A stretch of 38,384 nucleotides of DNA, taken from Candidatus Caldatribacteriota bacterium. GTDB lineage: Bacteria > Atribacterota > Phoenicimicrobiia > Phoenicimicrobiales > Phoenicimicrobiaceae. Each line of letters begins with the position of its first letter. Within the stretch, counting starts at the first letter, position 1. Below the pieces are notes generated by a model. That model saw only the letters and a list, made by a program, of their open reading frames with translations. It was not told where the DNA came from and made no database searches. The stretch lies in NCBI GenBank assembly GCA_034660595.1, contig JAYEJO010000093.1, forward strand, positions 1 through 38,384, written 5' to 3'. Below are positions 1,232 to 27,816 of this stretch, piece after piece. The position numbers were made by a program, and so were the translations under genes.

Positions 1232-1263
1232 TCGTATCTCGTATCTTGTGAATCGTATCTCGG
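1232..1263. repeat. 7-nt-periodic array, class 2 (TCGTATC units)
   Basis: tcgtatc|tcgtatc|ttgtgaa|tcgtatc|tcgg, read directly from the sequence. Confidence 0.8.
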
Positions 1264-1264
1264 G

Positions 1265-1299
1265 ATATAGCGGATAGCGTTTAGCGTAGAGCGTATAGC
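1265..1299. repeat. 7-nt-periodic array, class 1 (AGCGNNT units)
   Basis: atAGCGGATAGCGTTTAGCGTAGAGCGTATAGc. It matches the reverse complement of 27785..27816 at 30 of 32 positions. Confidence 0.85.
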
Positions 1300-1319
1300 A
1301 TCACGGCGTTGCCGTGATG
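1299..1319. repeat. Perfect 9-bp palindromic hairpin CATCACGGC-gtt-GCCGTGATG
   Basis: Read directly. It abuts the class-1 array. Confidence 0.7.
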
Positions 1320-1424
1320 AACAAAAAAGATTGCTAATCTAACATATAGCTGATTATATTCATCCCGTCATGGGTAGATATAAGGCCTGCCCCTATAATT
1401 TATTCATACTCGGTTGATTTAATT

Positions 1425-1456
1425 GGAAAATTGGTGAATCGGGAAATTGGTGAATT
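1425..1456. repeat. 16-nt tandem direct repeat (GGAAAATTGGTGAATC / GGGAAATTGGTGAATT)
   Basis: Read directly. It lies immediately downstream of the nrdG stop. Confidence 0.7.
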
Positions 1457-1463
1457 GTTATCC

Positions 1464-2174
1464 TCATCTCCAATAACAATTGGGAACATATTTTTTAGCT
1501 TTTTCTGATAGTTCCTGAATCTTTTCATCAGAATAGGGTTTTATCTTTTGAAAAGAAGGGTCGAGGGTCTTCTCTAAAGGAGAAAAATTCTGTAATACAT
1601 ATTTTTTCGCTCCGGTAATATGCCTGGCAATTTCCATAATGGTCTCAACGGAATGCAATAAAGGTACTACGGTAGTGCGAAATTCATAATCAATCTTTGA
1701 GTTCATTATTAATTCAATACTATCTTTTACTTTCTCTAACATTATTTTATCTTTTATGCCCACGGCCTTGGAATAATTATCAAAATCCAATGATGATTTA
1801 ATATCCATGGCAATATAATCCACCAAAGCAAAATCAAGGAGATTTTCTAATAATTTCGGATTAGTACCATTAGTATCCAGCTTTATTAAAAAACCTTTAT
1901 CTTTTATTTCTTTAAAATATGCAGGTAAATCGGGGTATAGGGTGGGCTCTCCTCCGCTCATACATATACCATCAATAAAATCTTTTCTCTCTAAGAGGAA
2001 GTTATCTATTTTTCTCAGGGAAATGTTAGGAAAATTTTCCGGATGTAATATTAAATCACAATTATAGCAGAATGGACATCTAAAGTTACAGGCAGGAAGA
2101 TATAAAGTAGAAACAATTTTCCCCTCCCAATCAATCAGAGAGGTCTCAATCATCTGCTTTATGGTAATGTTCAA
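1464..2174 (-). CDS. nrdG: Anaerobic ribonucleoside-triphosphate reductase activating protein (radical SAM)
   Basis: 236 aa with CNFRCPFCYN (CxxxCxxC) near the N-terminus, directly downstream of nrdD. The track start is TTG, overlapping the upstream stop as TTGA. An ATG 21 nt downstream (2153) is an alternative start. Confidence 0.9.
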   Translation of the reverse strand: MNITIKQMIETSLIDWEGKIVSTLYLPACNFRCPFCYNCDLILHPENFPNISLRKIDNFLLERKDFIDGICMSGGEPTLYPDLPAYFKEIKDKGFLIKLDTNGTNPKLLENLLDFALVDYIAMDIKSSLDFDNYSKAVGIKDKIMLEKVKDSIELIMNSKIDYEFRTTVVPLLHSVETIMEIARHITGAKKYVLQNFSPLEKTLDPSFQKIKPYSDEKIQELSEKAKKYVPNCYWR

Positions 2175-2425
2175 ATTGCTGCTTCCTCTCTAATCTCCTC
2201 TAATCGAGGGGCATTTCCTCTCCATATCTTGATCTCGTTATCCTCATTATCTGCGATTACTATAGAAGGAGTAGATGCAATATTATAATAACTTGCTTCA
2301 GCCAGACCATCAACCGAATCTACATCAAAATATTGAACTTCTGCCTCTTTTTCTAATTGTTTTCCCAGATTTTTAGCTTCCGGACAATGGGGACAGTTTT
2401 TTTGCCAGAATATTTTTATTTTCAT
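2171..2425 (-). CDS. Small thioredoxin-fold / glutaredoxin-like protein (CPHC)
   Basis: 84 aa with WQKNCPHCPEAK as the redox motif. It sits between nrdD and nrdG, where glutaredoxin-like proteins are commonly found in class III nrd operons. Confidence 0.75.
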   Translation of the reverse strand: MKIKIFWQKNCPHCPEAKNLGKQLEKEAEVQYFDVDSVDGLAEASYYNIASTPSIVIADNEDNEIKIWRGNAPRLEEIREEAAI

Positions 2426-2442
2426 AATATTTTCACTCTCTT

Positions 2443-4869
2443 CTAAATTTTATTCGTTAGTTTATAATTTCCGGAATGCCGATCTTTTAGTTCGCCGATC
2501 TTATTTTTATTCCAATTGGTTATTTTGCTATAATATCCCACTATCCTGGTTACTCCATATACATCTTCGCTCCCGCATCCATTGCAGTTCTCTTGTAATC
2601 CTCTGCTAACCTCGTTGCAGACATTACATATGGTAAACTCAGGCGAAATAGTAAGTTGAGAACACTGAGTATGTTCCCAAACTTTTTTAACTAAATTATA
2701 GATGCTCTCCGGTGAAGGCCGGCTTTCTCCTACAAAGGCGTGAATTATCGCCCCGCTCTTTATTAAAGGATGGAACTTACTTTGTTTAATAATTCGAGTG
2801 ATTAAATCTACCGGTGCTGAAGCAGCAAAATGGATACTATTAGTATAATAACTTTCATCTCCATTGGAATTTCCTTTTACAACTTTTTTGCTATCCGGAA
2901 ATTCCCGTAAATCGATTTTAGCTAACCTTCCCGCTGCGCTTTCAGCGGGAGATTCCTCCAGAGACAATTTTAAATTGAACTTCTTGCTATACTCTCTGCA
3001 CTTTAAACTCATAAAGGATATAATTTTTAATCCCAACTTAAAAATATCTTCACCTTCATGTAGTTGTTTGCCGGTAATATGCTGGACTGCTTCGTTTAAC
3101 CCGATTAATCCTATTAAGTAAGTTCCTTCATCCAAATTTACATAAGGCCTGCCATCCAAGGCTATCTTGCCTATTTGCCATAAAGGTCCGCTGGGATCTT
3201 CCATCATTGTCTTTAAAAACTTTTTCTTCTGTAAATGGGCTTTGACTGCTAAACATAAAGCCTGATCGATTTTATGGAAAAATAACTTTAAATTATCTTC
3301 ATCATTAAAGTCGAGAGAGGATTCGTAAATATTATTGTCAGGGAAGGTCCTGTAGGCACATTGAGGGAGATTAATAGTAACATTCTGTATCCCGGCAAAT
3401 CTTAACTTCTCAGGATACTGTATCATTTCCTGATCAGTTATCTCGGTCTTTAATCGGCAGCAGGCAGCCAAATTTATATCGTCCCTATCAAAAATAAAAT
3501 AAGGTGAACCGTTCTCGGAAGCTATTTCACAGGCATATTTTAATAGTTTTTTCTGTTCAGGATCCTCGAAAGATTTACTATCAATGTGCAGATCCATCTT
3601 AGGAAAAGCAAAAACTTTTCCGTGGTAATCCCCTTCTCTCCAAACTTCCATCAAAGCTCTCAAAAATAGTTGGGATTCTTTTTCGTAATCTCCGTAATTT
3701 TTTCCGGTATACTCCCCCCCCGGTCCGATTGCCGGTATATTTTTAAGATAGTGCGGGATACCGAGGTGAACATTGAAATCCAGGAAAAGACTCTGTCCTC
3801 CTCTGGAAAAGGCGTTTTGCGAACCGCTAAATATTAAATATTGGGCTTCTTGTTTTATTTCTTTAAAAGGTAGATTTACCAAAAAAGGGGCATACATGAT
3901 ATTTAAATAACCAATACCTAAAGCGCCCGCATAATAGGCCTGCATAGAAGCCAAAAAAGTATTTAAATGCCCGGTTAAGGTTCTGGTATGCTTGGCCGGA
4001 GCGGAAGAGGTATCCAAATTTTCTAATTCAAGACCATATTTCTTTAGAAATTCGAGAGAATGACCGGAACAATAAATTCTCGGATAGCCCAAATCATGAA
4101 TATGAATCCATCCTTTTAAATGGGCATCAGCTACTTCTTTGGAAAAAACTTCTTGCAGCATATATTGTTTGATAGTATTTTCGGCAATGATCAAATTTAT
4201 AGCTTCCGGATTATTGGTTCCAATATTACTATTTTCTTTACTCTTGGAAAAAAACAGTTGTTTTAAATCAAAGGTAGGCATCCCGATAATCTTTTGCTTT
4301 CTCCACTTATGTTCATATCCTCTGGTAAACAGCTCATTGTCAACCAATTCTCTAATCAAGGAAGTGGAAATCTCACTCAAACTTAAATCGACTATCTTTT
4401 TTTCTACTGCCTTGGCTATCTTGGTAGAAACATTTAAAGGTAGTTCCGCTTCTTTAACCAAAGCTTGAATGATTTTCTGCCTATCCCAGGGGAAAACATT
4501 CTCAGAGGTTGGAGTGGAAACCAGCAGAGAAAGCTCAGTTGTGCTTCCATGGTTTTCTACTTTTTTTCTAACTTTTAAGTCCTCTCTAATCCTGCTCCTT
4601 TTATCCCGATACAAAATATAAGCTTTTGCAACTTTTACCAAACCTTCTCTAATTAAGACCTCTTCTACTATATCCTGCACTTCTTCTACATGCGGAACCA
4701 AATCCTTAAATCTTTTTTCTAATTTTATAACTACCTGTTCGGTCACTTTTTCTGCTATAGTTTTATTTTTTTCTCCTGAGGCTAACGTAGCAGCGAAAAT
4801 AGCTTCGTTTATCTTCTTTTTATCAAATTCTACTAATCGGCCTTCTCTTTTTTTGATGGTCTGTATCAT
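2443..4869 (-). CDS. nrdD: Anaerobic (class III) ribonucleoside-triphosphate reductase
   Basis: 808 aa with an N-terminal ATP-cone. The C-terminal Zn site is CNVCNEV...CNGCGS, followed by the glycyl-radical motif TRIVGYY. RBS is GAGG, 7 nt before the ATG. Confidence 0.95.
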   Translation of the reverse strand: MIQTIKKREGRLVEFDKKKINEAIFAATLASGEKNKTIAEKVTEQVVIKLEKRFKDLVPHVEEVQDIVEEVLIREGLVKVAKAYILYRDKRSRIREDLKVRKKVENHGSTTELSLLVSTPTSENVFPWDRQKIIQALVKEAELPLNVSTKIAKAVEKKIVDLSLSEISTSLIRELVDNELFTRGYEHKWRKQKIIGMPTFDLKQLFFSKSKENSNIGTNNPEAINLIIAENTIKQYMLQEVFSKEVADAHLKGWIHIHDLGYPRIYCSGHSLEFLKKYGLELENLDTSSAPAKHTRTLTGHLNTFLASMQAYYAGALGIGYLNIMYAPFLVNLPFKEIKQEAQYLIFSGSQNAFSRGGQSLFLDFNVHLGIPHYLKNIPAIGPGGEYTGKNYGDYEKESQLFLRALMEVWREGDYHGKVFAFPKMDLHIDSKSFEDPEQKKLLKYACEIASENGSPYFIFDRDDINLAACCRLKTEITDQEMIQYPEKLRFAGIQNVTINLPQCAYRTFPDNNIYESSLDFNDEDNLKLFFHKIDQALCLAVKAHLQKKKFLKTMMEDPSGPLWQIGKIALDGRPYVNLDEGTYLIGLIGLNEAVQHITGKQLHEGEDIFKLGLKIISFMSLKCREYSKKFNLKLSLEESPAESAAGRLAKIDLREFPDSKKVVKGNSNGDESYYTNSIHFAASAPVDLITRIIKQSKFHPLIKSGAIIHAFVGESRPSPESIYNLVKKVWEHTQCSQLTISPEFTICNVCNEVSRGLQENCNGCGSEDVYGVTRIVGYYSKITNWNKNKIGELKDRHSGNYKLTNKI

Positions 4870-4902
4870 TTTGAAACCTCATTATAAAATATATTTGTTA
4901 AT

Positions 4903-4937
4903 TAGTCGCTAGTGAATAGTCGTTAGTCGTTAGTATT
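4903..4937. repeat. 7-nt-periodic array, class 4 (TAGTCGT units)
   Basis: tagtcgc|tagtgaa|tagtcgt|tagtcgt|tagtatt, in the nrdR-nrdD spacer. Confidence 0.8.
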
Positions 4938-4950
4938 AAATACAAGTTCT

Positions 4951-5042
4951 CAGTTGCCAGATAAAAAGTTAGTTGCTACAGTTAACCATCCTGATATTAA
5001 TTCTTCAACCGGGTAACCGGTAAACTGGCTAACTGGCTAACC
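4951..5042. repeat. Inverted pair of class-3 (GGTTAAC/CTGGCTAA) 7-8-nt arrays
   Basis: 4951..4987 reads cagttgccag..agttagttgctacagttaacc. 5009..5042 reads ccgggtaaccggtaaactggctaactggctaacc. The arms are imperfectly complementary. Confidence 0.6.
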
Positions 5043-5109
5043 ATCTTTACGAGATATGAATCAGGCTCCTGCAGAAAAAAGAAATTCCTATACAATTAAA
5101 TAATCTATT

Positions 5110-5559
5110 TTATTTGCTAATCCTTCTTATCTCTTTTACAAAGCTGCTTAGATCCTTAAATTGCCTATATACCGAGGCAAATCTTACATAAGCTACTTCA
5201 TCTAAATCTCGTAATCTGGAGATAACCAATTCTCCGATTAGACTACTCTTAATTTCATTAACTCCTTCACTTTTTATGGTCTCTTCTATGTTGTTTACTA
5301 AATTATTTATAGTCTCTATGCTAATCGGTCTTTTTTCGCAGGCTTTAATAATGCCGTTGGTAATCTTTTCTCGAGAAAAAGGTTCCCTCCGACCATCTTT
5401 TTTTATTACCATCAGGGGAATTAAATCAATTCTTTCGTAAGTAGTGAATCTTTTATTACATTTTTTACAAATTCTTCTTCTTCTGACTACTAATTCATTT
5501 TCTATGTGCCTGGATTCAATTACCCTGGTATCGTAATAACTACAATAAGGACATTTCAT
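5110..5559 (-). CDS. nrdR: Transcriptional repressor NrdR (Zn-ribbon + ATP-cone)
   Basis: 149 aa beginning MKCPYCSYYDTRVIESR...CKKCNKRFTTYER, followed by an ATP-cone. Confidence 0.95.
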   Translation of the reverse strand: MKCPYCSYYDTRVIESRHIENELVVRRRRICKKCNKRFTTYERIDLIPLMVIKKDGRREPFSREKITNGIIKACEKRPISIETINNLVNNIEETIKSEGVNEIKSSLIGELVISRLRDLDEVAYVRFASVYRQFKDLSSFVKEIRRISK

Positions 5560-5590
5560 TTTGCACCCCTAAATACAGGATCACATTTAT

Positions 5591-5619
5591 AGTATTACAC
5601 CATATATAGGAAATGTCAA
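5591..5619 (-). promoter_or_regulatory. Candidate sigma70-type promoter of nrdR, with a possible NrdR-box half-match in the spacer
   Basis: Minus strand reads TTGACA-17 nt-(TGt)AATACT. The spacer tttCCTATATATGGTGT matches the ACACwATATaTwGTGT NrdR-box consensus at about 11-12 of 16 positions, mainly in the right half. Confidence 0.4.
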
Positions 5620-5640
5620 TATAAATTGTTAAAAATATTT

Positions 5641-5692
5641 AAAAAAATAAGACAGGTGTCCCCCGTTTTCACGAGGGCAGGCCCGCCCTGTC
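5641..5692 (-). terminator. Second structured hairpin plus T-run downstream of ftsZ
   Basis: Minus strand reads GACAGGgcgggcctgccctcgtgaaaacgggggacaCCTGTC followed by TTATTTTTTT. The interior contains the palindrome AGGGCGGGCCTGCCCT. Confidence 0.5.
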
Positions 5693-5700
5693 TGTGAATT

Positions 5701-5734
5701 ATAAAAAGAAGGGCACAATTCATTGTGCCCCTAC
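5701..5734 (-). terminator. ftsZ terminator, which is also a REP-like hairpin copy
   Basis: Minus strand reads GTAGGGGCACAAT-GA-ATTGTGCCC followed by TTCTTTTTA. The 25-nt core is identical to 27634..27658 in the opposite orientation. Confidence 0.65.
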
Positions 5735-5791
5735 ACTTAAATCCCGTTCTCTTTAACTCGATACTAGTTATTCTGTACGTCTACGCTATCT

Positions 5792-6850: not shown

Positions 6851-6906
6851 TTTATAACCTCCCTGCAAATAATGGAATATTTACCTATTTAAAGGCAATA
6901 AAAAAA

Positions 6907-9135: not shown

Positions 9136-9229
9136 TACTATATACTCGATACTATCTTATTCGGACTACTGATTTCTTTTCTGTCTTTTCTTAACCAGTT
9201 AACCAAGTAACCAATTAACCGGTTAACTA
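9136..9229. repeat. Class-2 (CGATACT) then class-3 (TTAACCA) periodic arrays
   Basis: 9136..9173 reads tactatatactcgatactatcttattcggactactgat and shares the 17-nt actatatactcgatact with the reverse complement of 22841..22871. 9191..9229 reads ttaaccagttaaccaagtaaccaattaaccggttaacta. Confidence 0.75.
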
Positions 9230-9254
9230 ATTCTTAGTGATACGTTATACGAAA

Positions 9255-11575: not shown

Positions 11576-11596
11576 TAAATATAATTCCACCTTTAT

Positions 11597-11623
11597 CTCG
11601 TATTGCGTATCGCGTATCGCGTT
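11597..11623. repeat. Class-2 heptamer array (CGTATCG), left arm of an inverted pair
   Basis: ctcgtattgcgtatcgcgtatcgcgtt. It is about 22/26 complementary to 11807..11832. Confidence 0.8.
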
Positions 11624-11806
11624 AAAAAAATCATAAGTTTTAAAGGGTAGATATCTCTCCTGTTATGCTCTACGCTAAACAGGTTTTGAATTTTGAGCTA
11701 TGGTTTTTTCGTTTTTTGTTTTAAGTTTTAATTTTAATTACATATTCGTTTGATTTATAAAATCCGTATAAATAATTATATATAGAAATTTTCCCAAATA
11801 AATATG

Positions 11807-11832
11807 AACGCGATACGCAATACGCGATACTA
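11807..11832. repeat. Class-2 heptamer array (CGATACG), right arm of an inverted pair
   Basis: gaacgcgatacgcaatacgcgatact. A 183-nt AT-rich core lies between the arms. Confidence 0.8.
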
Positions 11833-13007: not shown

Positions 13008-14123
13008 TTACGCTCCCTGTTCTTTTACTTTGTACCGGGAAATATTTAATAAAATTCCCGCGCAAAACATATTTACAATTAGAGATGAACCTCCATAGCT
13101 GATAAAGGGTAAGGTAATGCCGGTAGTGGGAATCATCTTGGTCACTACTCCAATATTTATAATGCTCTGAAAAACTATCATTGAGGTAATACCTGCCGCC
13201 AACAAAGTCCCAAATTGGTCAGAAGAATCTAAAGCTATCCTGACTCCGCGCCACAACAATATTATAAAGAGAATAATTATTACCACAGTGCCTATAAACC
13301 CTAATTCCTCACCGATTATTGAGAAGATAAAGTCAGTATGTTGATCGGGGAGATAGAAATATTTTTGTTTACTCTCTGCCAATCCGATTCCTAAAATTCC
13401 ACCGCTTCCCAAGGCCAATAGAGATTGAATTATGTGAAACCCGCTATCTAAAGGATCTTTCCAGGGGTCCAAAAAGGATAACAATCTTGCTCTTCTATAT
13501 TCTTCTCTTGATAATATCAAAATTCCCAAAGGAATGGCTGCAGCTATCAGGGCATAAAGCTGAACTATCCTGGTCCCCCCAATAAATAACATAATAAAAG
13601 AAATGCCCAAAATAATTAAGGAAGTACTAAAATCTGGTTCATTCAAAATTAATAAAAACATTATTAACATAATAATTAAAGGGGGTAATACCCCTCTAAT
13701 AAAGGTTTTAATATCTTTTACTTGTTTTCTGGTTAAAGATTCTGCCATGTATAAGATTAAAGCAAATTTTGCGATTTCGGAAGGCTGAAAGGAAAAAAAT
13801 CCTATCTTAATCCATCTTCTTGCTCCGCCGGCAGTCCTCCCGATACCGGGAACATATACCATTGATAGCAATGCAATGGATAAAATTAAGATAGGTAGAG
13901 TAAATTTTTTATAATAATGATAATCGGTATATATGGCGAAAAAAAATACTACCAGGGCTATTATAGCATAAATTAATTGTCTTTTTAAAAAATAATAACT
14001 ATCTCCATACCATTTATAGGCCATAATGTAACTTGAACTAAAAACCATACATATACCGATAGCCATAAGTATAATTACTACTATAAAAAGCCATAAATCA
14101 GGAGATTTTTTTTCTAATAACAT
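13008..14123 (-). CDS. ftsW: Peptidoglycan glycosyltransferase FtsW (SEDS family)
   Basis: 371 aa polytopic membrane protein with SEDS motifs (PSEIAKF, TDFIFS, LPFISYGGSS). Confidence 0.9.
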   Translation of the reverse strand: MLLEKKSPDLWLFIVVIILMAIGICMVFSSSYIMAYKWYGDSYYFLKRQLIYAIIALVVFFFAIYTDYHYYKKFTLPILILSIALLSMVYVPGIGRTAGGARRWIKIGFFSFQPSEIAKFALILYMAESLTRKQVKDIKTFIRGVLPPLIIMLIMFLLILNEPDFSTSLIILGISFIMLFIGGTRIVQLYALIAAAIPLGILILSREEYRRARLLSFLDPWKDPLDSGFHIIQSLLALGSGGILGIGLAESKQKYFYLPDQHTDFIFSIIGEELGFIGTVVIIILFIILLWRGVRIALDSSDQFGTLLAAGITSMIVFQSIINIGVVTKMIPTTGITLPFISYGGSSLIVNMFCAGILLNISRYKVKEQGA

Positions 14124-14144
14124 CTAAGTATAACCTCTATTGTA

Positions 14145-14232
14145 TAGTTAGTTGGTTAACTGGTTATTTGGTTAAATAGTTTAAAACGAAATCTTCAACT
14201 AATTAACCAAGTAACCAACTAACTAGCTAACG
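14145..14232. repeat. ~35-bp imperfect hairpin built from class-3 7-8-nt units
   Basis: The left arm is tagttagttggttaactggttatttggttaaatag. The right arm is caactaattaaccaagtaaccaactaactagctaacg. The outer 14 bp pair perfectly and the loop is about 16 nt. The hairpin fills the mraY-ftsW spacer. Confidence 0.8.
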
Positions 14233-14237
14233 ATATA

Positions 14238-15188
14238 CTAAATACTGGCTATTCCAATAATACCCAGTATTAATCCCGCTATCCAAAAGCTGATAATAAT
14301 TTTAGGTTCTTTCCAGCCACAGAGTTCAAAATGATGGTGAATAGGGCTCATCTTAAAAATTATTTTACCTCTTAATTTTACCGAAGCAACTTGAAGTATC
14401 ACTGATAGAGTTTCAATCACAAATATCCCCCCTATTATCAGTAGAAACAACTCTGTTCTAGTAAAAATTGCTACCGAAGCAAGTGCCCCACCCAAAGCCA
14501 GAGAGCCTACATCTCCTAAAAATATCTTGGCCGGGTAAAAATTATAGATTAAAAAACCGAAAGAGGTTAAGGCGACTATCAGGGAAAATAGGCTCATGGG
14601 CAATATATTTTGCATATAGGCAATTAAAGCAAAACTAAACATAGAAATAATTATCAAGCCGGCTGCCAGTCCATCTAAGCCATCAGTTAGGTTTACCGCA
14701 TTGACCGAACTAATCATCACCAAGACCACAAAAGGCACAAACATAATTCCTAAATCTATACTATTTTTTATAAAAGGAAGATAAATTTCTGTACCTAAAT
14801 CAGTGTTTTGTAGAACACCACAGGCAACTATTAAAGCAAGAGCAATCTGGAGCAACAGCTTCTGCATGGTAAGAAGACCTAATGACCGCTTCTTAAGATG
14901 TTTAATTAAATCGTCAATTAAGCCGATAAGGCCAAAACCGACAGTGGCAGCTAACGACCATAAAACATATTTATTGTAAGGGACAAGGAGTAAAACTACT
15001 ATTATTAAAGTAAGGATAACTATTACCCCTCCCATGGTAGGTGTTCCCATCTTATGTTGATGAAGATCCGGCCCTTCCTGACGAATTTTCTGTCCCACAT
15101 TATGTTTTTTTAAATATTTTATAAAAAACGGCAGAGCAATTACCGGGATTATAAAAGAAACTAATAAAGTTAAGGGCCAATGGGTCAT
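14238..15188 (-). CDS. mraY: Phospho-N-acetylmuramoyl-pentapeptide transferase
   Basis: 316 aa polytopic membrane protein with NLTDGLDGLA and SPIHHHFE. Confidence 0.95.
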   Translation of the reverse strand: MTHWPLTLLVSFIIPVIALPFFIKYLKKHNVGQKIRQEGPDLHQHKMGTPTMGGVIVILTLIIVVLLLVPYNKYVLWSLAATVGFGLIGLIDDLIKHLKKRSLGLLTMQKLLLQIALALIVACGVLQNTDLGTEIYLPFIKNSIDLGIMFVPFVVLVMISSVNAVNLTDGLDGLAAGLIIISMFSFALIAYMQNILPMSLFSLIVALTSFGFLIYNFYPAKIFLGDVGSLALGGALASVAIFTRTELFLLIIGGIFVIETLSVILQVASVKLRGKIIFKMSPIHHHFELCGWKEPKIIISFWIAGLILGIIGIASI

Positions 15189-18109: not shown

Positions 18110-18134
18110 AAAAAATACCTCTGAATTATAAATA

Positions 18135-18160
18135 GTGTATAGCGTATAGCGTATAGTATG
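18135..18160. repeat. Class-1 heptamer array
   Basis: gtgtatagcgtatagcgtatagtatg, immediately upstream of the murE RBS. Confidence 0.8.
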
Positions 18161-18199
18161 AAAGATAAGATGTTTGTCCTCCAGTTAAATTCCGTATAT

Positions 18200-18228
18200 A
18201 GTATATCTTATTGCCTATTGTGATTCAA
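18200..18228 (-). promoter_or_regulatory. Candidate sigma70-type promoter for murE-murF-mraY
   Basis: Minus strand reads TTGAAT-17 nt-TATACT, about 90 nt upstream of the murE ATG. Confidence 0.4.
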
Positions 18229-18279
18229 TGTGTGTCAGGAGCGATCCTTTTACACGGTTTGACCAACTAAAAACTTAAA

Positions 18280-18309
18280 GTGTATAGCGTACAGCGTTTA
18301 GCGTATAGG
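18280..18309. repeat. Class-1 heptamer array
   Basis: gtgtatAGCGTACAGCGTTTAGCGTATAGg. A 23-nt stretch is identical to 27548..27570. Confidence 0.85.
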
Positions 18310-18482: not shown

Positions 18483-18515
18483 CTCTACGCTCTACGCTGT
18501 ACGCTCCACGCTATC
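18483..18515. repeat. Class-1 heptamer array, inverted orientation
   Basis: ctctacgct|ctacgct|gtacgct|ccacgct|atc. It is complementary in class to 18280..18309. Confidence 0.85.
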
Positions 18516-18530: not shown

Positions 18531-18560
18531 CGCGATACTCGATACTCGATACACGATACT
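18531..18560. repeat. Class-2 heptamer array (CGATACT)
   Basis: cgcgatact|cgatact|cgataca|cgatact. It overlaps the first two bases of the ftsI stop codon (18559..18561). Confidence 0.85.
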
Positions 18561-21666: not shown

Positions 21667-21669
21667 AGA

Positions 21670-22101: not shown

Positions 22102-22123
22102 AAAATCTCCTTTATATTATATC

Positions 22124-22150
22124 CTCCACTTCTCTCCACTTTACTCCACT
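22124..22150 (-). promoter_or_regulatory. Putative MraZ operator: three direct AGTGGAG boxes with 10-nt phasing
   Basis: Minus strand reads AGTGGAGtaaAGTGGAGagaAGTGGAG, ending 22 nt upstream of the mraZ ATG. MraZ operators in other bacteria are 3-4 short direct repeats at about 10-bp spacing. Confidence 0.65.
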
Positions 22151-22199: not shown

Positions 22200-22350
22200 T
22201 AATTTGATTTTTTTTAAAATATTTGAAAATACCGTATATTTAGCGTCTTTTCTATAATAGATACGCTATTTTTCAGCGTATTTTTTGGGAAAATAAAAAA
22301 GCTGACTTAAATATTGGTTCTTAAGTGGGGCATTTTTGAGGAAAAAGGAT

Positions 22351-22390
22351 AAAAAAAAGACACACAATAAATATTTTATTGTGTGTCTTT
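22351..22390 (-). terminator. Rho-independent terminator of rnpB
   Basis: Minus strand reads AAGACACACAATAAaatattTTATTGTGTGTCTT followed by TTTTTTTT. Confidence 0.8.
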
Positions 22391-22405
22391 ATATCTATCT
22401 ATTTT

Positions 22406-22780
22406 GATAAGTAGATCGTATAAGCCGAGTTCTGTCCCTTTATAAATTCATAAAGGTGGTAATCATCTATCTGGGACGTAAGTTACCTTACGCCTCTTGC
22501 GACCTACCCGAAGATTCAGCGGGCCACCACAGCTCTTCCTATTTGGTCTTGCTCCGAGCGGGGTTTACTAAGCTTGTTAGTCACCTAACAACTGGTAGGC
22601 TCTTACCCTGCCTTTTCACCTTTACCGAAAACACTCAAATTGAGTGCCCGGCTGTGTATTTTCTGTAGCACTTTCCTTAAGGTTACCCTCACTGGGGGTT
22701 ACCCAGCGCTCTGCCCTGTGGAGCTCGGACTTTCCTCGAAAGAAATAGTATTTCTTCCGCGATTACCTGATCTACTTATC
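22406..22780 (-). ncRNA. rnpB: RNase P RNA, bacterial type A
   Basis: Minus strand contains GAGGAAAGTCCGAGCTCCACAGGGCAG, GGTAAAGGTGAAAAGGCAGGGTAAGAGCCTACC, GGAGCAAGACCAAATAGG and ACAGAACTCGGCTTATA. P1 is formed by GATAAGTAGATC and its complement at the two ends. Confidence 0.93.
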
Positions 22781-22801
22781 AAATATTCTTTTTTCAATTT
22801 T

Positions 22802-22830
22802 AAAATACCATTTTAATCTAATAAAGTCAA
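22802..22830 (-). promoter_or_regulatory. Candidate promoter of rnpB
   Basis: Minus strand reads TTGACT-17 nt-(TGg)TATTTT, an extended -10 about 21 nt before the mature 5' end. Confidence 0.4.
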
Positions 22831-22840
22831 TTCTTAAAAT

Positions 22841-22871
22841 AGTATCGAGTATATAGTATTGAGTATCGAGC
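22841..22871. repeat. Class-2 heptamer array (AGTATCG orientation)
   Basis: agtatcg|agtatat|agtattg|agtatcg|agc. Confidence 0.8.
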
Positions 22872-22968
22872 TAAGAAAGAGAAAGATAAGAAATTAAGGG
22901 AAAGTAGAGAAAAGATGTAAGCGTAATCTTTTTAATCTAACTGCCCTACCCAAGTTTATACTAATGAG

Positions 22969-23685
22969 CTAATCTTTCCAAATTAGAATCCGATTGCAAT
23001 TAGGACAAATTAATATCTTTCGATTCTTTTGTAATTGATAAATAACATCACTGGGAAGGTCAAGATAACAGCCTGGACATATAGAACCATCAACTTTTAC
23101 AATGGCTTTTCCGCCTTTCTCTTTTCTTAAAAGTTCATATTCTTTTAAAAGATGGTCATCGGTTATTTTATTTAATATCTCTCCCCTTTTGATATTCAAA
23201 GAGTTCATATTCTTTTCAATACCTAACATTGCAAAATCTATTTCCTCTTTACATTTTTTAAGCTCTTTCTCTTTGCCTTTCAAGTCTTCCTCGAGATTAC
23301 AAACTGATTTATTAAGATCTTCTACTTCTTCCATCATATCTAAAATTTCTTCTTCAATGCCATTTTTTTCTTCTTCGTACTTGGCTATTACCTTTTGTAT
23401 TTGTTTAAGCTCCTTAATATCAGATATCTTTCCTCCGTACAAATCATCTTTATGTTTATTAATTTTATTAGATTTTTCGACTAAATCCAGTTCTTTTCTT
23501 TTTAATTTGATCTGCAAACTCTTATAATTTTCATTTTTATTTTTTAAACTATCCTTCAGCCCCTGAATTTTTTTGGTAATCCCTTCTAACATTAAAGGCA
23601 AACTTTTCTTTTTTTTCTCTTCTTCATCAATATCAATATCAATTTTCTGTAATTCCAAAAGAATATCATATTGTTCTTCTATCAA
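22969..23685 (-). CDS. Coiled-coil / C4 zinc-ribbon protein (COG1579, DUF164-like)
   Basis: 238 aa. A long Glu/Lys-rich coiled coil is followed by CPGC...(19 aa)...CPNC. The start is TTG. Confidence 0.7.
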   Translation of the reverse strand: MIEEQYDILLELQKIDIDIDEEEKKKKSLPLMLEGITKKIQGLKDSLKNKNENYKSLQIKLKRKELDLVEKSNKINKHKDDLYGGKISDIKELKQIQKVIAKYEEEKNGIEEEILDMMEEVEDLNKSVCNLEEDLKGKEKELKKCKEEIDFAMLGIEKNMNSLNIKRGEILNKITDDHLLKEYELLRKEKGGKAIVKVDGSICPGCYLDLPSDVIYQLQKNRKILICPNCNRILIWKD

Positions 23686-23727
23686 TAACCTATTCCTCCT
23701 CTCTTCGTAGTTGCAAAGCCCATTAAA

Positions 23728-23767
23728 ACAAAAAAACCTTACTTCTTATATAAAAGAAGTAAGGTTT
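23728..23767 (-). terminator. Rho-independent terminator after the tRNA
   Basis: Minus strand reads AACCTTACTTCTTttatataAGAAGTAAGGTT followed by TTTTTGTTTT. Confidence 0.8.
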
Positions 23768-23858
23768 TTATAAAATTCTGGTATTTTTATAATTTTTTGT
23801 TTTATCATAAATTCCACACTACCTGTATTATCAATAAAATTAATAATTACCAATTTTT

Positions 23859-23934
23859 TGGTGGGCCCACCTGGATTCGAACCAGGGACCGACCGGTTAT
23901 GAGCCGGTTGCTCTGCCAGCTGAGCTATGGGCCC
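23859..23934 (-). tRNA. tRNA with anticodon CAT (elongator Met type; Ile2/lysidine identity not excluded), CCA encoded
   Basis: I folded the cloverleaf by hand: GGGCCCA ta GCTC agctggca GAGC a ACCGG CTCATAA CCGGT cggtc CCTGG ttcgaat CCAGG TGGGCCC a CCA. G1-C72 is paired, so it is not an initiator. Confidence 0.93.
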
Positions 23935-23959
23935 GTTAGCCAACATTATCTTCGTTAAA

Positions 23960-23987
23960 AGTATATCAGATATGTTTATAAAGTCAA
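23960..23987 (-). promoter_or_regulatory. Candidate promoter of the tRNA
   Basis: Minus strand reads TTGACT-16 nt-(TGa)TATACT, about 25 nt before the tRNA 5' end. Confidence 0.5.
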
Positions 23988-23995
23988 GAATATTT

Positions 23996-24054
23996 TCGTA
24001 TCTCGTATAGAATTAGTTAGCTAGTTAGTTGGTTACCTGGTTAGCCAGTTAAGG
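23996..24054. repeat. Class-2 (TCGTATC) then class-3 (TAGTTAG/GGTTA) arrays
   Basis: ttcgtatctcgtatag..ttagttagctagttagttggttacctggttagccagttaagg. 24017..24044 matches the reverse complement of 14204..14231 at about 27 of 28 positions. Confidence 0.85.
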
Positions 24055-24103
24055 AAATAAAAGAAAGATAAAAGTAGGGGTATATTGCATCCACCCCTGT
24101 AAC

Positions 24104-25132
24104 TTATTTTAGATGCAGGCTCTTTAGCTGACCGCAGGCAGCAGAAATATCATCACCCTTTGATATTCTTATAGTGGTTGGGATCCCTCTGGCGGTCAGC
24201 TTATTTTTAAAGAATTTAACCTGGGAAGCAGTGGGTGCCTGCAGTAAGGAATCGGGTGCAGGATTAAAAGTAATTAAATTTACTTTAGAATTAAATCCAC
24301 CAATCAGTTTAGCTAATTCGTTTGCATAAATCAGTGAATCATTCACTCCTTTAATTAAAATATATTCAAAAGTAATCTGCCTTTTAGTTTTTTCCGCATA
24401 ATTTTTGCACGTTTCTATCAGATCGGGCAAGGGATACATATTATTTACCGGCATTAGGTAAGACCTTAATTTATTCTCCGGGGCATGCAGAGAAACTGAT
24501 AGCTCTATCTGCCAATTACGTTCTTGTAACCTTTTTATTGCCGGTATCACCCCACAGGTAGAAATGGTAATCTTTCTTGCCCCGATATTGAAAGCATCTT
24601 TTGAATTCAATATACAAATGGCTTTTACAACATTATCATAATTATCTAAAGGTTCACCAATGCCCATAAATACAATATTATTGAGATTGGATTCAATCTT
24701 TTTCTTTACAAATAAAACTTGATTTAAAATCTCACTAACTGTAAGGTTTCTGGTAAAGCCTTTTTTACCGCTTTCACAAAACAAACAGTTATATTTGCAG
24801 CCAATTTGGGAAGATATACATTCAGTCGCTCTTTTACCGGAAAATATAAGAACACTTTCTATTAAATTCCCATCTTCTAATTTAAATAAATATTTTTCGG
24901 TTTGGTCTTTCGATTTAGCTAAATTTACCAACCCTATCTTGCTTATGTAAAAATTTTCTTGAAGTAAGTCTCTAAATGATGCTGGAAGACCCAGCATATC
25001 TCCGAAGTCTTCTATCCCTTTCCTATAAAGCAAATCAAATAATTGAGCTGCCCTATATTTTTCAACTCCTAACTTTTTAACCTCTTCTTGTAATTCGTTT
25101 AAGGTAAATTTTTTAATATCTTTCTTTTGCAT
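24104..25132 (-). CDS. rlmN: 23S rRNA/tRNA adenine-C2 methyltransferase, radical SAM (RlmN/Cfr family)
   Basis: 342 aa with the GCKYNCLFCESG (CxxxCxxC) cluster, GIGEPL, ITISTCG, SLHAP and a C-terminal ACGQL. Confidence 0.9.
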   Translation of the reverse strand: MQKKDIKKFTLNELQEEVKKLGVEKYRAAQLFDLLYRKGIEDFGDMLGLPASFRDLLQENFYISKIGLVNLAKSKDQTEKYLFKLEDGNLIESVLIFSGKRATECISSQIGCKYNCLFCESGKKGFTRNLTVSEILNQVLFVKKKIESNLNNIVFMGIGEPLDNYDNVVKAICILNSKDAFNIGARKITISTCGVIPAIKRLQERNWQIELSVSLHAPENKLRSYLMPVNNMYPLPDLIETCKNYAEKTKRQITFEYILIKGVNDSLIYANELAKLIGGFNSKVNLITFNPAPDSLLQAPTASQVKFFKNKLTARGIPTTIRISKGDDISAACGQLKSLHLK

Positions 25133-25150
25133 AATACAATTTTAATCTCT

Positions 25151-26203
25151 TTATTTTTTAATCTCTCTTTTTATGTTTTCAGCAAATTCTTTTGCTTTTT
25201 TGTCTATCTTCAAGGCATTCATTATTGACCCGGGGTCATTGGCGATAGATGTTAAAGCAAAATAAGGAGGCAATCTGAATCCTTTGTTAATATTTAAGGC
25301 CCCTATTAACTGTTTAGCCACACAATCACTCCCCGAATTTCCGGAAACCACAAGGGAAAATAGAGTTTTATCCCCAAATTTCACCCTCTTATAAAGTACA
25401 GTCATCCTATTTATAACCGCCATAAGCTTTGCGGATATTGCATCGTTATAATTGGGGCATAACCAGATGATACAATCAGCCTCTTCTATCGCGGGGAGAA
25501 TTTCTTTTACCATAATCCCCCCATAAAAACAGCTTTTTTCTTCACTATAATGAATACAGGTTTTATAAGAACACCCCCTGCAGTCTACTACGGTCCCATT
25601 TTCTACGTGGAGTTCTCTTATATCTTCGCCACCAAGGTTTTCTTTTACCATTTTCCAAAGCATAAGAGTATTAGATGTCTTAAACAAACTCGAATGCAGC
25701 ACAAGTATCTTTGGCCTATTAATTAATTTTAAGTTCTCCTTCGTTAATTTTTTTACTAATTCTTTGGCCTGTTCTTGGTAAATCTCTACGAGAGGCAGGT
25801 TATACATTTTTTGCCAGGTTAGAAAATTATTGAGATTTTGATTGGCCTCTACAACCGGATGACCGGGGAATCTACACCCCATCTGATTGGTTAAAAAAAT
25901 TATCTTTTGAGCGGTGCTCTTAGTAAATAGCGCACTCGAACTTTGGATTATAATTACTGCTCTTGAACCTAAAAGGGCATCATCTCCCCTTTTCTTTATT
26001 TTTAAAAGCATTTCAAATAGAGGAATATTAAATCCGCATTCATCTAATTCGATAGCAAATATAATCTTTTTATTTTGTAAATCAACAAGAAAATCCTTAA
26101 TGGTTTTTATAATTGTTAATTGACAATTTTCTGTGGCTATTTTGATGACTTCGGCAAAACTACCCGATATTTTCCCCGGCATAACCAAATAAATCATTTC
26201 CAT
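25151..26203 (-). CDS. Two-domain flavodoxin-fold protein; the C-terminal half resembles NADPH-dependent FMN reductase / iron-sulfur flavoprotein
   Basis: 350 aa. From about aa 165 it reads KILVLHSS...VDCRGCSYKTCIHYSEEKSC...ILPAIEEADCIIWLCPNYNDAISAKLMAVINRM, the FMN-reductase pattern plus a CX2CX4CX8C cluster. The N-terminal ~160 aa is a second alpha/beta domain with no motif I recognise. Confidence 0.6.
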   Translation of the reverse strand: MEMIYLVMPGKISGSFAEVIKIATENCQLTIIKTIKDFLVDLQNKKIIFAIELDECGFNIPLFEMLLKIKKRGDDALLGSRAVIIIQSSSALFTKSTAQKIIFLTNQMGCRFPGHPVVEANQNLNNFLTWQKMYNLPLVEIYQEQAKELVKKLTKENLKLINRPKILVLHSSLFKTSNTLMLWKMVKENLGGEDIRELHVENGTVVDCRGCSYKTCIHYSEEKSCFYGGIMVKEILPAIEEADCIIWLCPNYNDAISAKLMAVINRMTVLYKRVKFGDKTLFSLVVSGNSGSDCVAKQLIGALNINKGFRLPPYFALTSIANDPGSIMNALKIDKKAKEFAENIKREIKK

Positions 26204-26230
26204 AAAATAATTTCCTCTTTCGGTGATTAT

Positions 26231-27475
26231 TTATAAAATATTACCCAATTCCTGATAACTTTCTTTAATTTTCTCTATTAAGTTAACTGGAAGGTCTAAT
26301 CTTTCAATTTCAGTTCCTGATTTAAGCAATCTATTTTTCGCCCCCATAAATACCCCTCCCATAAAGGTTGCACTATAATGCCATTTCCCGCTCATAGTGG
26401 CGATAAGAGGATAACTCCCGGAAGATAAAGCAGGAGCTACATAAGGTTTAAAACCGGTCTTCCTTACTTCCAGGTTTGCTTTTACGGCCTGAGCGGTAAG
26501 CATCTCTGAAAGACTTTCATTATATTTTTTTAAGCTATTAGCAATTACCAAACCCCGGCCATGAGGACCAAAGGCTCTGCCTTCTCGATTATATTCAGCG
26601 GTTTCAGTATTTTGTTTTGAGTAGTAGACTGCCCGGGCATGCATCACTCCTAACCCATATCCTCTTATTTGGTCTGCTGCTAATCCTTTAAAATCAAACT
26701 CTCCGCTTGTGTCTTTACTACCGGTTAGAAAAACAGCTTTACACAATAAGTCTACCGGGTCTGAGATAATTGCAAATATCCCCTTAAACGATTTTTCCCG
26801 GGCTTTTCTGGCATAATCAGAGATTATCTTAGAATTTCCCTCGAACTGCTTCATTCTCACATCTTCCTGTTCTTCTCCCAAAGAAGGAACTCCTACAGTT
26901 GCGCAAAATACAAACATGTCACAATCAAAAATATTCTCTTCTCTTAACTGGTAAACATCAGGAAACCTCCGAACAGTAAAAGGAGAAAATATCTGATTTG
27001 CCTCTAATTCCCATCTTTTTAACGCATTTATATTTTTATCATATATTCCGATAGATTCAATACAACTTCCTCCTAATAATCTCAAGCCGGTAAGGAGGGT
27101 TCCTCCTACATCACCCAATCCTACAATATTCACTTTCCACCGGGAGGGAAATTTATAAGTTAACACATCTTGCCAGTTAAGGTATTCGGTATTAAGTGAA
27201 CTCAATCTTTTTTCTTTTATTCTTTGATTAAGCCATGGGGGTAAATCATAATCAATTTTCTTGGATTTTTGCAGCAGGTGGATGCCCTCTTCTTTTAAAA
27301 AGATTAGTGATGGGTCAGTAATACTAAAATATCTTCTGGATTTTAAGGGGTTTATCCGGTTAAGTACATAAATTATTTCTTTGCTCTCTTTGGCTTCGAT
27401 TTCGGATATTCTATTTAATTCACTGTATTCCGATTGGGAAATTAGTATTTTATCTTTTAATTTATAGAAGAACAT
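26231..27475 (-). CDS. Lactate/malate dehydrogenase-fold protein with ~110-aa N-terminal extension
   Basis: 414 aa. VNIVGLGDVGGTLLTGLRLLG is a Rossmann GxGxxG, SDPVDLL corresponds to the LDH NPVD segment, and HAR and GPHG correspond to the Arg171 and His195 regions. The alignment is by eye only. Confidence 0.6.
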   Translation of the reverse strand: MFFYKLKDKILISQSEYSELNRISEIEAKESKEIIYVLNRINPLKSRRYFSITDPSLIFLKEEGIHLLQKSKKIDYDLPPWLNQRIKEKRLSSLNTEYLNWQDVLTYKFPSRWKVNIVGLGDVGGTLLTGLRLLGGSCIESIGIYDKNINALKRWELEANQIFSPFTVRRFPDVYQLREENIFDCDMFVFCATVGVPSLGEEQEDVRMKQFEGNSKIISDYARKAREKSFKGIFAIISDPVDLLCKAVFLTGSKDTSGEFDFKGLAADQIRGYGLGVMHARAVYYSKQNTETAEYNREGRAFGPHGRGLVIANSLKKYNESLSEMLTAQAVKANLEVRKTGFKPYVAPALSSGSYPLIATMSGKWHYSATFMGGVFMGAKNRLLKSGTEIERLDLPVNLIEKIKESYQELGNIL

Positions 27476-27500
27476 CTTTAATTTTCCCCCTCACCCTAAC

Positions 27501-27521
27501 CCTCTCCCTCCGGGGGAGAGG
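27501..27521. repeat. GC-rich hairpin CCTCTCCC-tccgg-GGGAGAGG
   Basis: 8-bp perfect stem, 25-45 nt upstream of the LDH-like start codon on the transcribed strand. Confidence 0.6.
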
Positions 27522-27537
27522 AAATAAAGAATATTTG

Positions 27538-27570
27538 TTTAGCGTAGAGCGTACAGCGTTTAGCGTATAG
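27538..27570. repeat. Class-1 heptamer array, left arm of a foldback
   Basis: tttAGCGTAGAGCGTACAGCGTTTAGCGTATAG. Confidence 0.85.
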
Positions 27571-27633
27571 AAATACAATAGTATATTATAAATAATTTTA
27601 TAGTAATTTTGGAATTGTTGGTTATAATTAGAT

Positions 27634-27710
27634 GTAGGGGCACAATGAATTGTGCCCTCCCCATATTGTTACTTAAAATCTCTTGAGGGCACGATGCATC
27701 GTGCTCCTAC
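27634..27710. repeat. Pair of REP-like hairpins (GTAGGGGCAC...GTGCCC / GAGGGCAC...GTGCTCCTAC)
   Basis: 27634..27658 reads GTAGGGGCACAATGAATTGTGCCCT, the exact reverse complement of 5710..5734. 27685..27710 reads GAGGGCACGATGCATCGTGCTCCTAC. The two hairpins are mutually inverted. Confidence 0.8.
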
Positions 27711-27784
27711 ATTATAATACTTCTTTTATTCTTTCTTCTTTTTGCCTAACGAGCTAACTATTTCTATACTATATACTAATTTTC

Positions 27785-27816
27785 CTATACGCTACACGCT
27801 AAACGCTATCCGCTAT
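27785..27816. repeat. Class-1 heptamer array, right arm of a foldback; overlaps the stop codon and last codons of the megaprotein ORF
   Basis: ctatacgctacacgctaaacgctatccgctat. Its reverse complement matches 1266..1297 at 30 of 32 positions. Confidence 0.85.

Follow-up and report, generated by a model that had tools for sequence, protein, structure and literature searches.

The stretch of DNA analysed here, referred to as the window, comprises positions 1 to 38,384 (38,384 nt) of contig JAYEJO010000093.1 and derives from an uncultivated sediment bacterium of the JS1 clade of Atribacterota. It carries the division and cell-wall (dcw) gene cluster together with the repeats that are the subject of this report, namely short tandem arrays of 7- or 8-nt units that lie between genes, frequently as inverted pairs in which one arm is at the stop codon of a gene and the other just upstream of the ribosome-binding site (RBS) of the next. 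Every gene in the window is on the minus strand. The gene order begins with a 1646-aa open reading frame (ORF), three enzyme genes, rlmN, tRNA-Met, a zinc-ribbon gene and the RNase P RNA gene, continues with mraZ-rsmH-ftsL-ftsI-murE-murF-mraY-ftsW-murG-murC-murB-ftsQ-ftsA-ftsZ, and ends with nrdR-nrdD-nrdG, a glycine riboswitch and a gene of the yfiH/pgeF family. The MurE protein is 82–91% identical to MurE of JS1-clade Atribacterota genomes, e.g., Candidatus Sediminicultor, in agreement with a preliminary description of the sequence that had already judged the genome not to be cyanobacterial.

Arrays were called with Tandem Repeats Finder (period 7 or 8, at least three copies), and units consisting only of A and T were removed before counting. 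There are 17 such arrays in the window, compared with a mean of 0.015 per shuffle and a maximum of one when the spacers were dinucleotide-shuffled (n = 200). All 17 fall within the non-genic 14.8% of the sequence, with two of them clipping gene ends. The arrays are typically built of 3–5 units of 7 or 8 nt and represent the heptamer families AGCGTAT, GTATCGC, AGTATCG and ACTAACG and the octamer families GGTTAACY and AATTGGNN (Table 1); a lag scan of the window detects runs at lags 7 and 8 only. Nearly all of the periodic ranges in the preliminary description were recovered, with self-identity of 0.64–0.87 at lag 7 or 8 versus 0–0.2 at neighbouring lags, the weak ones being 9136–9173 (lag-7 identity 0.48), the left part of 4951–5042 and the two-unit stretch 23996–24010. 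Its statement that almost every long spacer is filled was too strong, as 13 spacers within 1232–27816 measure 100 bp or more, of which 9 contain an array, and none is called in 27817–38384. In other respects it holds: the three long matches between distant copies reappear as 29/31, 22/22 and 26/27 identities after a one-base register shift, the arrays are intergenic apart from the clipped gene ends, they are often found just 5′ of an RBS and often as inverted pairs, and they make up a dispersed family resembling the short tandemly repeated repetitive (STRR) sequences, with 8-nt units in addition to the 7-nt ones, rather than a set of independent microsatellites.

Table 1. Repeat arrays of the window and associated features, listed in the direction of transcription
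Feature	Position	Strand	Tandem Repeats Finder call	Remarks
1646-aa ORF	27799–32739	−		Kept in JS1 relatives
Pair, 5′ arm	27785–27816	−	Period 7, 27785–27816	G+T-rich; sense AGCGGAT AGCGTTT AGCGTGT AGCGTAT
Pair, 3′ arm	27541–27567	−	Period 7, 27541–27567	Partner of 27785–27816; A+C-rich; sense CTATACG CTAAACG CTGTACG CTCTACG
Octamer and heptamer array	23996–24051	−	Period 8, 24014–24051	(TAACYRRN)5, then two heptamer units; ends 8 nt 5′ of tRNA-Met promoter −35 box
tRNA-Met promoter	23987–23960	−		TTGACT-16-TATACT
Unpaired heptamer array	22841–22870	−	Period 7, 22841–22870	A+C-rich, CGATACT type; ends 10 nt 5′ of RNase P RNA promoter −35 box
RNase P RNA promoter	22830–22802	−		TTGACT-17-TATTTT
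ftsI>murE, outer 5′ arm	18533–18560	−	Period 7, 18533–18560	(AGTATCG)4; ftsI stop codon within first unit
ftsI>murE, inner 5′ arm	18483–18512	−	Period 7, 18483–18512	(AGCGTRN)4
ftsI>murE, inner 3′ arm	18282–18308	−	Period 7, 18282–18308	CTATACG CTAAACG CTGTACG CTATAC
ftsI>murE, outer 3′ arm	18132–18156	−	Period 7, 18132–18156	(CTATACG)3; ends 22 nt before murE start codon
mraY>ftsW, 5′ arm	14204–14231	−	Period 8, 14204–14231	Octamer (TTAGYTRG)3.5; 6 nt 3′ of mraY stop codon
mraY>ftsW, 3′ arm	14153–14175	−	Period 8, 14153–14175	Octamer (TAACCARN)3; ends 23 nt before ftsW start codon
murG>murC, 5′ arm	11808–11830	−	Period 7, 11808–11830	(GTATCGC/GTATTGC)3; 64 nt 3′ of murG stop codon
Segment between murG>murC arms	11623–11807	.		
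murG>murC, 3′ arm	11594–11622	−	Period 7, 11594–11622	(GCGATAC)3–4; end abuts murC RBS
Octamer array after murB	9191–9232	−	Period 8, 9191–9232	(GGTTAAYY)5; 22 nt 3′ of murB stop codon; self-complementary, folds on itself
Octamer array after nrdR	5007–5042	−	Period 8, 5007–5042	GGTTAGCC type; 67 nt 3′ of nrdR stop codon; partner at 4951–4990 weak
Unpaired heptamer array	4902–4934	−	Period 7, 4902–4934	A+C-rich, (ACTAACG)4.7; ends 32 nt before nrdD start codon
Octamer array after nrdG	1421–1450	−	Period 8, 1421–1450	TTCCAATT type; shortly 3′ of nrdG stop codon
Two adjoining heptamer arrays	1232–1299	−	Period 7, 1232–1262 and 1266–1299	A+C-rich, CTATACG type, then GATACGA type; downstream of nrdG
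Glycine riboswitch aptamer	965–1066	−		65.7 bits

The arrays are genuine and not an artefact of assembly. In the Logan assembly of a different sequencing run, SRR26901924, a contig matches window positions 22527–18484 at 99.98%; it covers the first two arrays 3′ of ftsI, reads 18533–18560 identically, and breaks within the second array, as would be expected of a dispersed repeat. Misassembly had been raised at the outset as a possible source of the arrays, and this independent assembly reproduces two of them. Arrays of this kind also fragment short-read assemblies. When strain-level variation in copy number was looked for, the closest full-length relatives proved to be only 90–92% identical, and the Logan contigs with 99.9% identity stop at the arrays, short of a full spacer. 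An exact match to the MurG protein of the window is not on record.

Occurrence in the JS1 lineage and beyond

The comparison set consists of the window and 19 JS1 relatives (288 kb), six deeper Atribacterota loci (102 kb), and dcw loci of other phyla (822 kb). All 19 relatives possess arrays at the same dcw gene junctions as the window. Within the JS1 clade, 88 arrays of period 7 and 24 of period 8 are found, with at most three for any other period, giving 112 period-7/8 arrays; a separate count of arrays in the 20 JS1 loci gives 119. Tandem Repeats Finder called no array of period 7 or 8, and few of other periods, in the six deeper loci. The window and its relatives thus share a repeat family that is very probably real, dispersed, lineage-wide, and of the STRR type. 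Arrays also occur in 22 further low-GC contigs that carry an AGCGTAT-type (class 1) array outside the dcw region. ORFs account for 80% of these contigs, yet 91 of their 100 arrays lie outside ORFs. With the contigs taken as putatively JS1-like on low G+C content and array type, this shows the family to extend across whole genomes of that kind.

The dcw loci of other phyla gave 39 arrays of period 7, 23 of period 8 and 13 of period 9, mainly from Desulfobacterales and from a single locus each of Planctomycetia and Omnitrophota. Those with 7/8-nt arrays of their own are L056 (Planctomycetia), L071, L046, L058 and L070 (Desulfobacterales), and L029 (Omnitrophota). Examples of their units are TGAGTTG/AACTAAC and ATTGGAAT/CCATTATT, which are G+T-rich after the stop codon and A+C-rich before the next start. 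The presence of the same layout in the Planctomycetia locus and the Desulfobacterales loci suggests that it is general and has been overlooked. A pattern of four ACGCTNN units was tried as a JS1 marker and rejected as not lineage-specific, as the metagenome matches listed span every G+C content and include at least 55 viral contigs. Since matches to (ACGCTNN)x3+ACGCT extend across all G+C contents and viral contigs, heptamer arrays are a general bacterial phenomenon.

Anchoring, pairing and turnover

The position of an array relative to genes follows its base composition. Stop-proximal arrays are G+T-rich on the sense strand (AGCGTAN, GTATCGC, GTATATC, GTATCTC, AGTATCG, TTAGYTGG), and start-proximal arrays are the A+C-rich complements of these units. 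G+T-rich arrays start no more than 5 nt from a stop codon in 17 of 52 cases (null mean 1.7, maximum 6), and 23 of 46 A+C-rich arrays end 15–40 nt before a start codon (null mean 4.8, maximum 12). Of 20 unpaired arrays no more than 10 nt from a stop codon, 17 have a G+T-rich sense strand. At the ftsI stop codon, an array begins on or directly at the stop in the window and in 15 of 18 readable JS1 relatives, with at least five unit families represented. Likewise, CTAnACG, AATTGGnn and ACGmwAT arrays interchange between relatives immediately 5′ of the GAGG that is conserved at murE; the window array at 18132–18156 lies a few bases 5′ of this RBS, a position that is the same in six loci (the window and five relatives). 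In the window, the 1646-aa ORF owes its five final codons and its stop to the array at 27785–27816, whereas in relatives it terminates just before this point; the partner of this array at 27541–27567 ends 64 nt 5′ of the start codon of ORF 26231–27475. Three unpaired A+C-rich arrays have a different setting, two of them 8–10 nt 5′ of a promoter −35 box (that of tRNA-Met and that of RNase P RNA) and the third 5′ of the riboswitch; the arrays at 1232–1299 are about 166 nt upstream of the glycine riboswitch.

In structure prediction, four array spacers fold far better than their shuffles (z = −3.8, −5.5, −8.2 and −4.6), with the arrays forming nested basal stems of about 20–30 bp. The value of −8.2 belongs to the whole spacer with the arms 27785–27816 and 27541–27567, −5.5 to murG>murC and −4.6 to mraY>ftsW. 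Inverted arrays in the folded spacers enclose 29–420 bp. Complementarity is higher between an array and its own partner (−0.84 kcal/mol per nt) than with arrays of other junctions (−0.59 ± 0.06), and none of 300 permutations reaches the observed value; 18483–18512 and 11808–11830 pair with their partners at −1.23 and −1.60 kcal/mol per nt, respectively. Among strongly complementary pairs, the G+T-rich arm comes first in 25 and second in one.

Gene order is the same in 25 Atribacterota loci, while spacer lengths vary at five junctions, with ranges of 100–646 bp for ftsI>murE, 16–1956 bp for mraY>ftsW, 36–436 bp for murG>murC, and 45–346 bp for murB>ftsQ. In relatives that are ~90% identical in DNA, unit types, copy numbers and enclosed sequence are wholly different. 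The spacers are mosaics in which modules of 60–200 nt, 75–93% identical, reappear at different junctions and in both orientations. The arrays belong with these modules to a fast-changing, small, dispersed and intergenic set specific to JS1-clade Atribacterota. The 185-bp segment between the murG>murC arms has the opposite orientation to its counterpart in the orthologous spacers of two relatives, L002 and L004; it matches L002 16979–17176 in the + orientation while the flanking genes are opposite, and also L004 11341–11471. For the majority of enclosed segments, the orientation is the same in all relatives. A foldback or mobile-module character, one of several roles proposed in the preliminary description, gains support from the modules common to different spacers and from this one inversion. 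No target-site duplication was seen at the murG>murC array borders when filled and short spacers were read by eye, and whole-element copies at unrelated sites were not found, the shared sequence being limited to modules of 60–200 nt.

Other small elements accompany the arrays. GTAG-tagged, GC-rich hairpins similar to repetitive extragenic palindromes (REPs) and REPINs lie within array stems at window 27633–27710 (e.g., GTAGGGGCACAATGAATTGTGCCCC plus an inverted second copy), and such hairpins are also present at window 5710–5735 and in spacers of L002, L004, L008 and L009. A longer module, GTAGGGGTTCGATTTATCGAACCC...CCCCTAC, is found in several relatives. The hairpin ATCACGGCGTTGCCGTGAT, a small dispersed module beside arrays, occurs at window 1300–1322 and in the murB>ftsQ spacers of L002 and L009. 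The mraY>ftsW spacer of L008 (9826–11781; 1956 bp) contains two tandem DUF1670 genes with helix-turn-helix motifs. The genes are part of a 1.6-kb element with perfect 17-bp terminal inverted repeats (CATATGCCCCCAGGTCT) between complementary heptamer arrays, and judged by this structure it looks like a mobile element within an essential operon.

Several neighbouring features of the window deserve mention. The gene murD is absent between mraY and ftsW (13008–15188) and elsewhere in the dcw cluster, both in the window and in every Atribacterota relative mapped. The only Rfam matches in the window are RNase P RNA, tRNA-Met and the glycine riboswitch, and no Rfam family is matched by the array spacers. 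The sole Pfam match of the 1646-aa ORF is a weak one to a cytidylyltransferase-like domain (residues 928–1093). The riboswitch aptamer sits ~185 nt 5′ of the YfiH/PgeF-family gene (ORF about 1–780, −), whose product matches Pfam Cu-oxidase_4 with E = 9e-69. PgeF removes glycine or serine that has been misincorporated into the stem peptide of peptidoglycan, and control of the gene by glycine sensing, as its position would imply, would make biological sense; we know of no earlier description of such control for a pgeF-type gene. Directly 5′ of mraZ (22124–22150, −), three GTGGAG repeats at 10-nt spacing look like the MraZ operator boxes of other bacteria, by analogy; with its period of 10, this array has no relation to the heptamers. 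At 27488–27525 (−), the sense strand reads GGAGGGAGAGGGTTAGGGTGAGGGGG, with four G-tracts that may possibly form a quadruplex and with a telomere-like TTAGGG; the same stretch holds a CCUCUCCC/GGGAGAGG hairpin and lies directly 5′ of, and overlaps, the RBS of ORF 26231–27475. Finally, within the ftsI>murE spacer, the block 18193–18229 (−) shows conservation that extends to L016, an Atribacterota relative without arrays. It includes a sigma-70-like TTGAAT-17-TATACT that is probably an internal murE promoter, and transcripts from this putative promoter would have the 3′ array without its 5′ partner.

Interpretation of the paired arrays

No terminator-like site was found in any dcw spacer, and the arrays are therefore presumably transcribed. 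Slippage favouring 7–8-nt units may create and resize arrays, recombination or non-autonomous transposition may spread them among spacers, and recombination between inverted arms could flip the enclosed DNA. Once transcribed as part of a polycistronic RNA, the two arms would pair across each spacer as an imperfect double-stranded stem of 20–30 bp, with any inserted sequence looped out. A duplex of such length is the kind of structure that is a substrate for RNase III. The stem could accordingly be cut by a double-strand-specific RNase of this type or act as a protective hairpin at new RNA ends, and the dcw transcript would be split into stable sub-operon mRNAs. Our best guess is that the transcribed stems are RNA processing or stabilising sites. 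For the explanation as a whole, i.e., STRR-type paired modules that arise by slippage and copying and act as RNA stems, we consider the chances to be about even; that the predicted stems have the stated function in RNA is the more tentative part. Processing and stabilising stems were already listed in the preliminary description, and of that proposal it is the structure, as predicted, that is upheld.

A number of observations weigh against an RNA function. Two array-bearing spacers fold no better than shuffles, one of them being the nrdR-side spacer with the array 5007–5042 (z = −0.4), and roughly half of the arrays have no partner. The sense and antisense strands of the window fold about equally well. 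Comparison of the two strands as a test of selection on RNA was tried in the wider set and set aside: the sense strand has the advantage in 41 of 54 JS1 spacers, yet array-free lineages show the same in 14 of 17 spacers, so the effect is compositional. In the stems, G-U pairs (15) are not in significant excess over A-C mismatches (10), and mismatches are mostly transversions; together these give no sign of selection on the sense RNA over a DNA palindrome. The rule that the G+T-rich arm comes first was also rejected as an indicator of transcription polarity, since the order in a pair is identical on both strands and hence only unpaired arrays are informative on strand; the excess of one arm order is a bias between two possible kinds of inverted repeat. 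Three arrays precede promoters, where a role in the transcript that they precede is unlikely. Finally, complementarity between arms is equally expected from co-insertion of a foldback element.

A close rival to RNA processing is that the arrays are a tolerated by-product without function, in which a 7–8-nt slippage bias and foldback or mobile modules fill unconstrained DNA until purifying selection sets limits at stop codons, RBSs and −35 boxes. This is a real possibility, and with both tests of selection on RNA null it remains close behind. It fits the wholesale change of unit type, copy number and content between ~90% identical relatives, and the "empty" short spacers at the same junctions (25 bp without an array in L020 after the 1646-aa ORF versus 323 bp in the window; 54 versus 304 bp). 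It also fits the array that ran over a stop codon and so lengthened a protein by five residues, the 1.6-kb element of two genes, flanked by 17-bp terminal inverted repeats of its own, inside one spacer, and stems without wobble-pair asymmetry. Moreover, the preference for period 7/8 is common to unrelated phyla and all G+C contents, as a property of a polymerase would be. It accounts less well for the great excess of arrays in the outermost position over what their proportion of the spacer would predict, and for the persistence of an array at the stop codon of ftsI (the window plus 15 of 18 readable JS1 relatives) and at the murE RBS (nearly all) despite its changing sequence family. Nor does it readily explain why one arm order is almost missing (25 to 1) or why 17 of 20 unpaired arrays beside stop codons are G+T-rich on the sense strand.

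A more far-reaching form of the RNA-stem explanation, which we regard as speculative and rather improbable, is that paired 7/8-nt arrays are a cross-phylum intercistronic RNA "clasp" defined by geometry instead of sequence, which loops out invading DNA and keeps operons working. A G/U-rich arm on the stop codon and an A/C-rich arm before the RBS would allow RNase III-type processing, or would position a terminating ribosome beside the start codon that follows. The missing arm order might then reflect selection against a C-rich, G-poor arm being exposed first, e.g., to Rho. If this were true, the layout shared by dcw loci of Atribacterota, Planctomycetota and Desulfobacterales would be convergent.

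It is unlikely that the arrays serve as binding sites, either for a ribosome-loading RNA-binding protein (S1- or Csp-like, as proposed for TAACTGA repeats) or for a DNA regulator or nucleoid protein. The A+C-rich arrays just 5′ of RBSs and of three promoter −35 boxes do occupy the position of an UP element or activator, the heptamer units have a GTAT/ATAC core in common, and deletion of heptamer repeats is reported to alter the activity of the recO promoter of Nostoc (preprint, 10.1101/2022.06.06.494920). Against these stand at least eight unit families in two periods that interchange at the same site, which is hard to reconcile with a sequence-specific binder, as well as a 7-bp spacing that puts sites off one face of B-DNA; no candidate protein was identified. 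That inverted arrays are recombination sites which flip an enclosed regulatory segment, in the manner of phase-variable invertons, is very improbable, since the oppositely oriented murG>murC segment in the window versus L002/L004 is a single case between species and not within a population, no strong promoter appears in 11623–11807 among the scan matches listed, no recombinase-like ORF is present among the window ORFs read (no formal search was made), and most enclosed segments are unflipped across relatives.

Known heptamer repeats and meaning for JS1 bacteria

Intergenic heptamer repeats have been known since 1990. The arrays described here resemble the STRR sequences of heterocystous cyanobacteria (Calothrix, Nostoc/Anabaena) in having tandem 7-nt units of several families per genome that are dispersed in intergenic DNA and also occur within operons. 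They agree with that class in their head-to-tail 7-nt units beyond chance, dispersed non-coding copies and several unit families, but differ in phylum, in units, in the presence of 8-nt classes, and in a layout that is mostly paired and anchored at stop codons and RBSs. No unit of the window matches the cyanobacterial STRR consensus sequences as far as these are known to us. The STRR family had been taken for the only precedent; this was mistaken, as intergenic heptamer arrays are also reported from Xanthomonas and Nostoc (PMC4692102), and from Beggiatoaceae, cyanobacteria and Bacteroidetes (PMC4679880), and a heptamer array is part of a hairpin in Haemophilus (PMC12721329). Literature searches found no report of such repeats in Atribacterota.

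According to the summaries in PMC4679880 and PMC4692102, the 2007 survey of Mrazek found heptamers to be the most frequent type of long simple sequence repeat in many bacteria and proposed an origin by slippage, as in the by-product explanation above. The JS1 arrays are similar in that period 7 is commonest, the location intergenic and the phylogenetic distribution scattered. The survey is older than any Atribacterota genome, and pairing or anchoring is not described in these summaries of it. The TAACTGA repeats of marine Beggiatoaceae, cyanobacteria and Bacteroidetes likewise occur as 2–6 copies just 5′ of start codons, including in essential operons, and the JS1 octamer class TAACYRRN resembles their unit (PMC4679880). 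In Beggiatoaceae, however, there is essentially a single unit in 169 direct sets versus one indirect, and it overlaps or replaces the RBS (PMC4679880), whereas JS1 arrays have many units, are mostly in inverted pairs, and retain a canonical GAGG downstream. Tandem Repeats Finder detected no TAACTGA array in the window, where arrays end a few bases 5′ of the retained GAGG. GGGAATC of Xanthomonas and GGGGAYT of Nostoc share with the JS1 arrays an intergenic location, conserved junctions, strong variation in length and sequence among close relatives, and some inverted pairs; they are G-rich and have been studied as quadruplex formers (PMC4692102), unlike the JS1 arrays, which are not G-tract repeats.

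In Nostoc, deletion of heptamer repeats is reported to change reporter expression (preprint, 10.1101/2022.06.06.494920), and intercistronic stem-loops set the stoichiometry of operon products (PMC4423207). In Haemophilus influenzae, the (ATCTTTC)n array of hmw1A is one arm of a hairpin in the 5′ untranslated region, and RNase III cuts this hairpin (PMC12721329). For an arm made of a heptamer array, no other mechanism is known to have experimental support. The JS1 arrays would be comparable, with a heptamer array predicted as the arm of a long, presumably transcribed hairpin near a start codon. In contrast, hmw1A is one phase-variable locus where the array pairs with a G-rich stretch that is not a repeat, while in JS1 both arms are arrays and dozens of loci are involved.

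Mobile small repeats offer a further comparison. REPs, bacterial interspersed mosaic elements (BIMEs), REPIN mosaics and MITEs (miniature inverted-repeat transposable elements) likewise represent small intergenic mosaic modules, present in both orientations and forming RNA or DNA hairpins in operons (PMC3733652, PMC3116915, PMC3184786). The JS1 arrays differ from them as tandem repeats rather than GTAG- or CGTC-tagged palindromes; the 20–40-nt imperfect palindrome with such a tag, typical of REPs and BIMEs, is lacking in the arrays, and GTAG occurs only on the separate nested hairpins. As in MITEs, inverted arrays flank a short non-coding core in the manner of terminal inverted repeats, but no target-site duplication was seen at the murG>murC borders and no whole-element copies were found.

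The repeat kind itself is therefore known. New here are its phylum and unit families, the occurrence of 7- and 8-nt classes side by side, and a layout in pairs with anchor points at stop codons and RBSs. The JS1 lineage provides a comparative data set of dozens of species-level genomes with identical gene order, in which arrays are replaced yet their position, pairing and arm order are kept. With it, the vague question of STRR function becomes a matter of specific tests, i.e., of stem cutting, of the effect of pairing on downstream expression, and of the missing arm order. The arrays can also shift gene ends and split short-read assemblies of JS1 genomes, which matters for the annotation of these abundant subseafloor bacteria.

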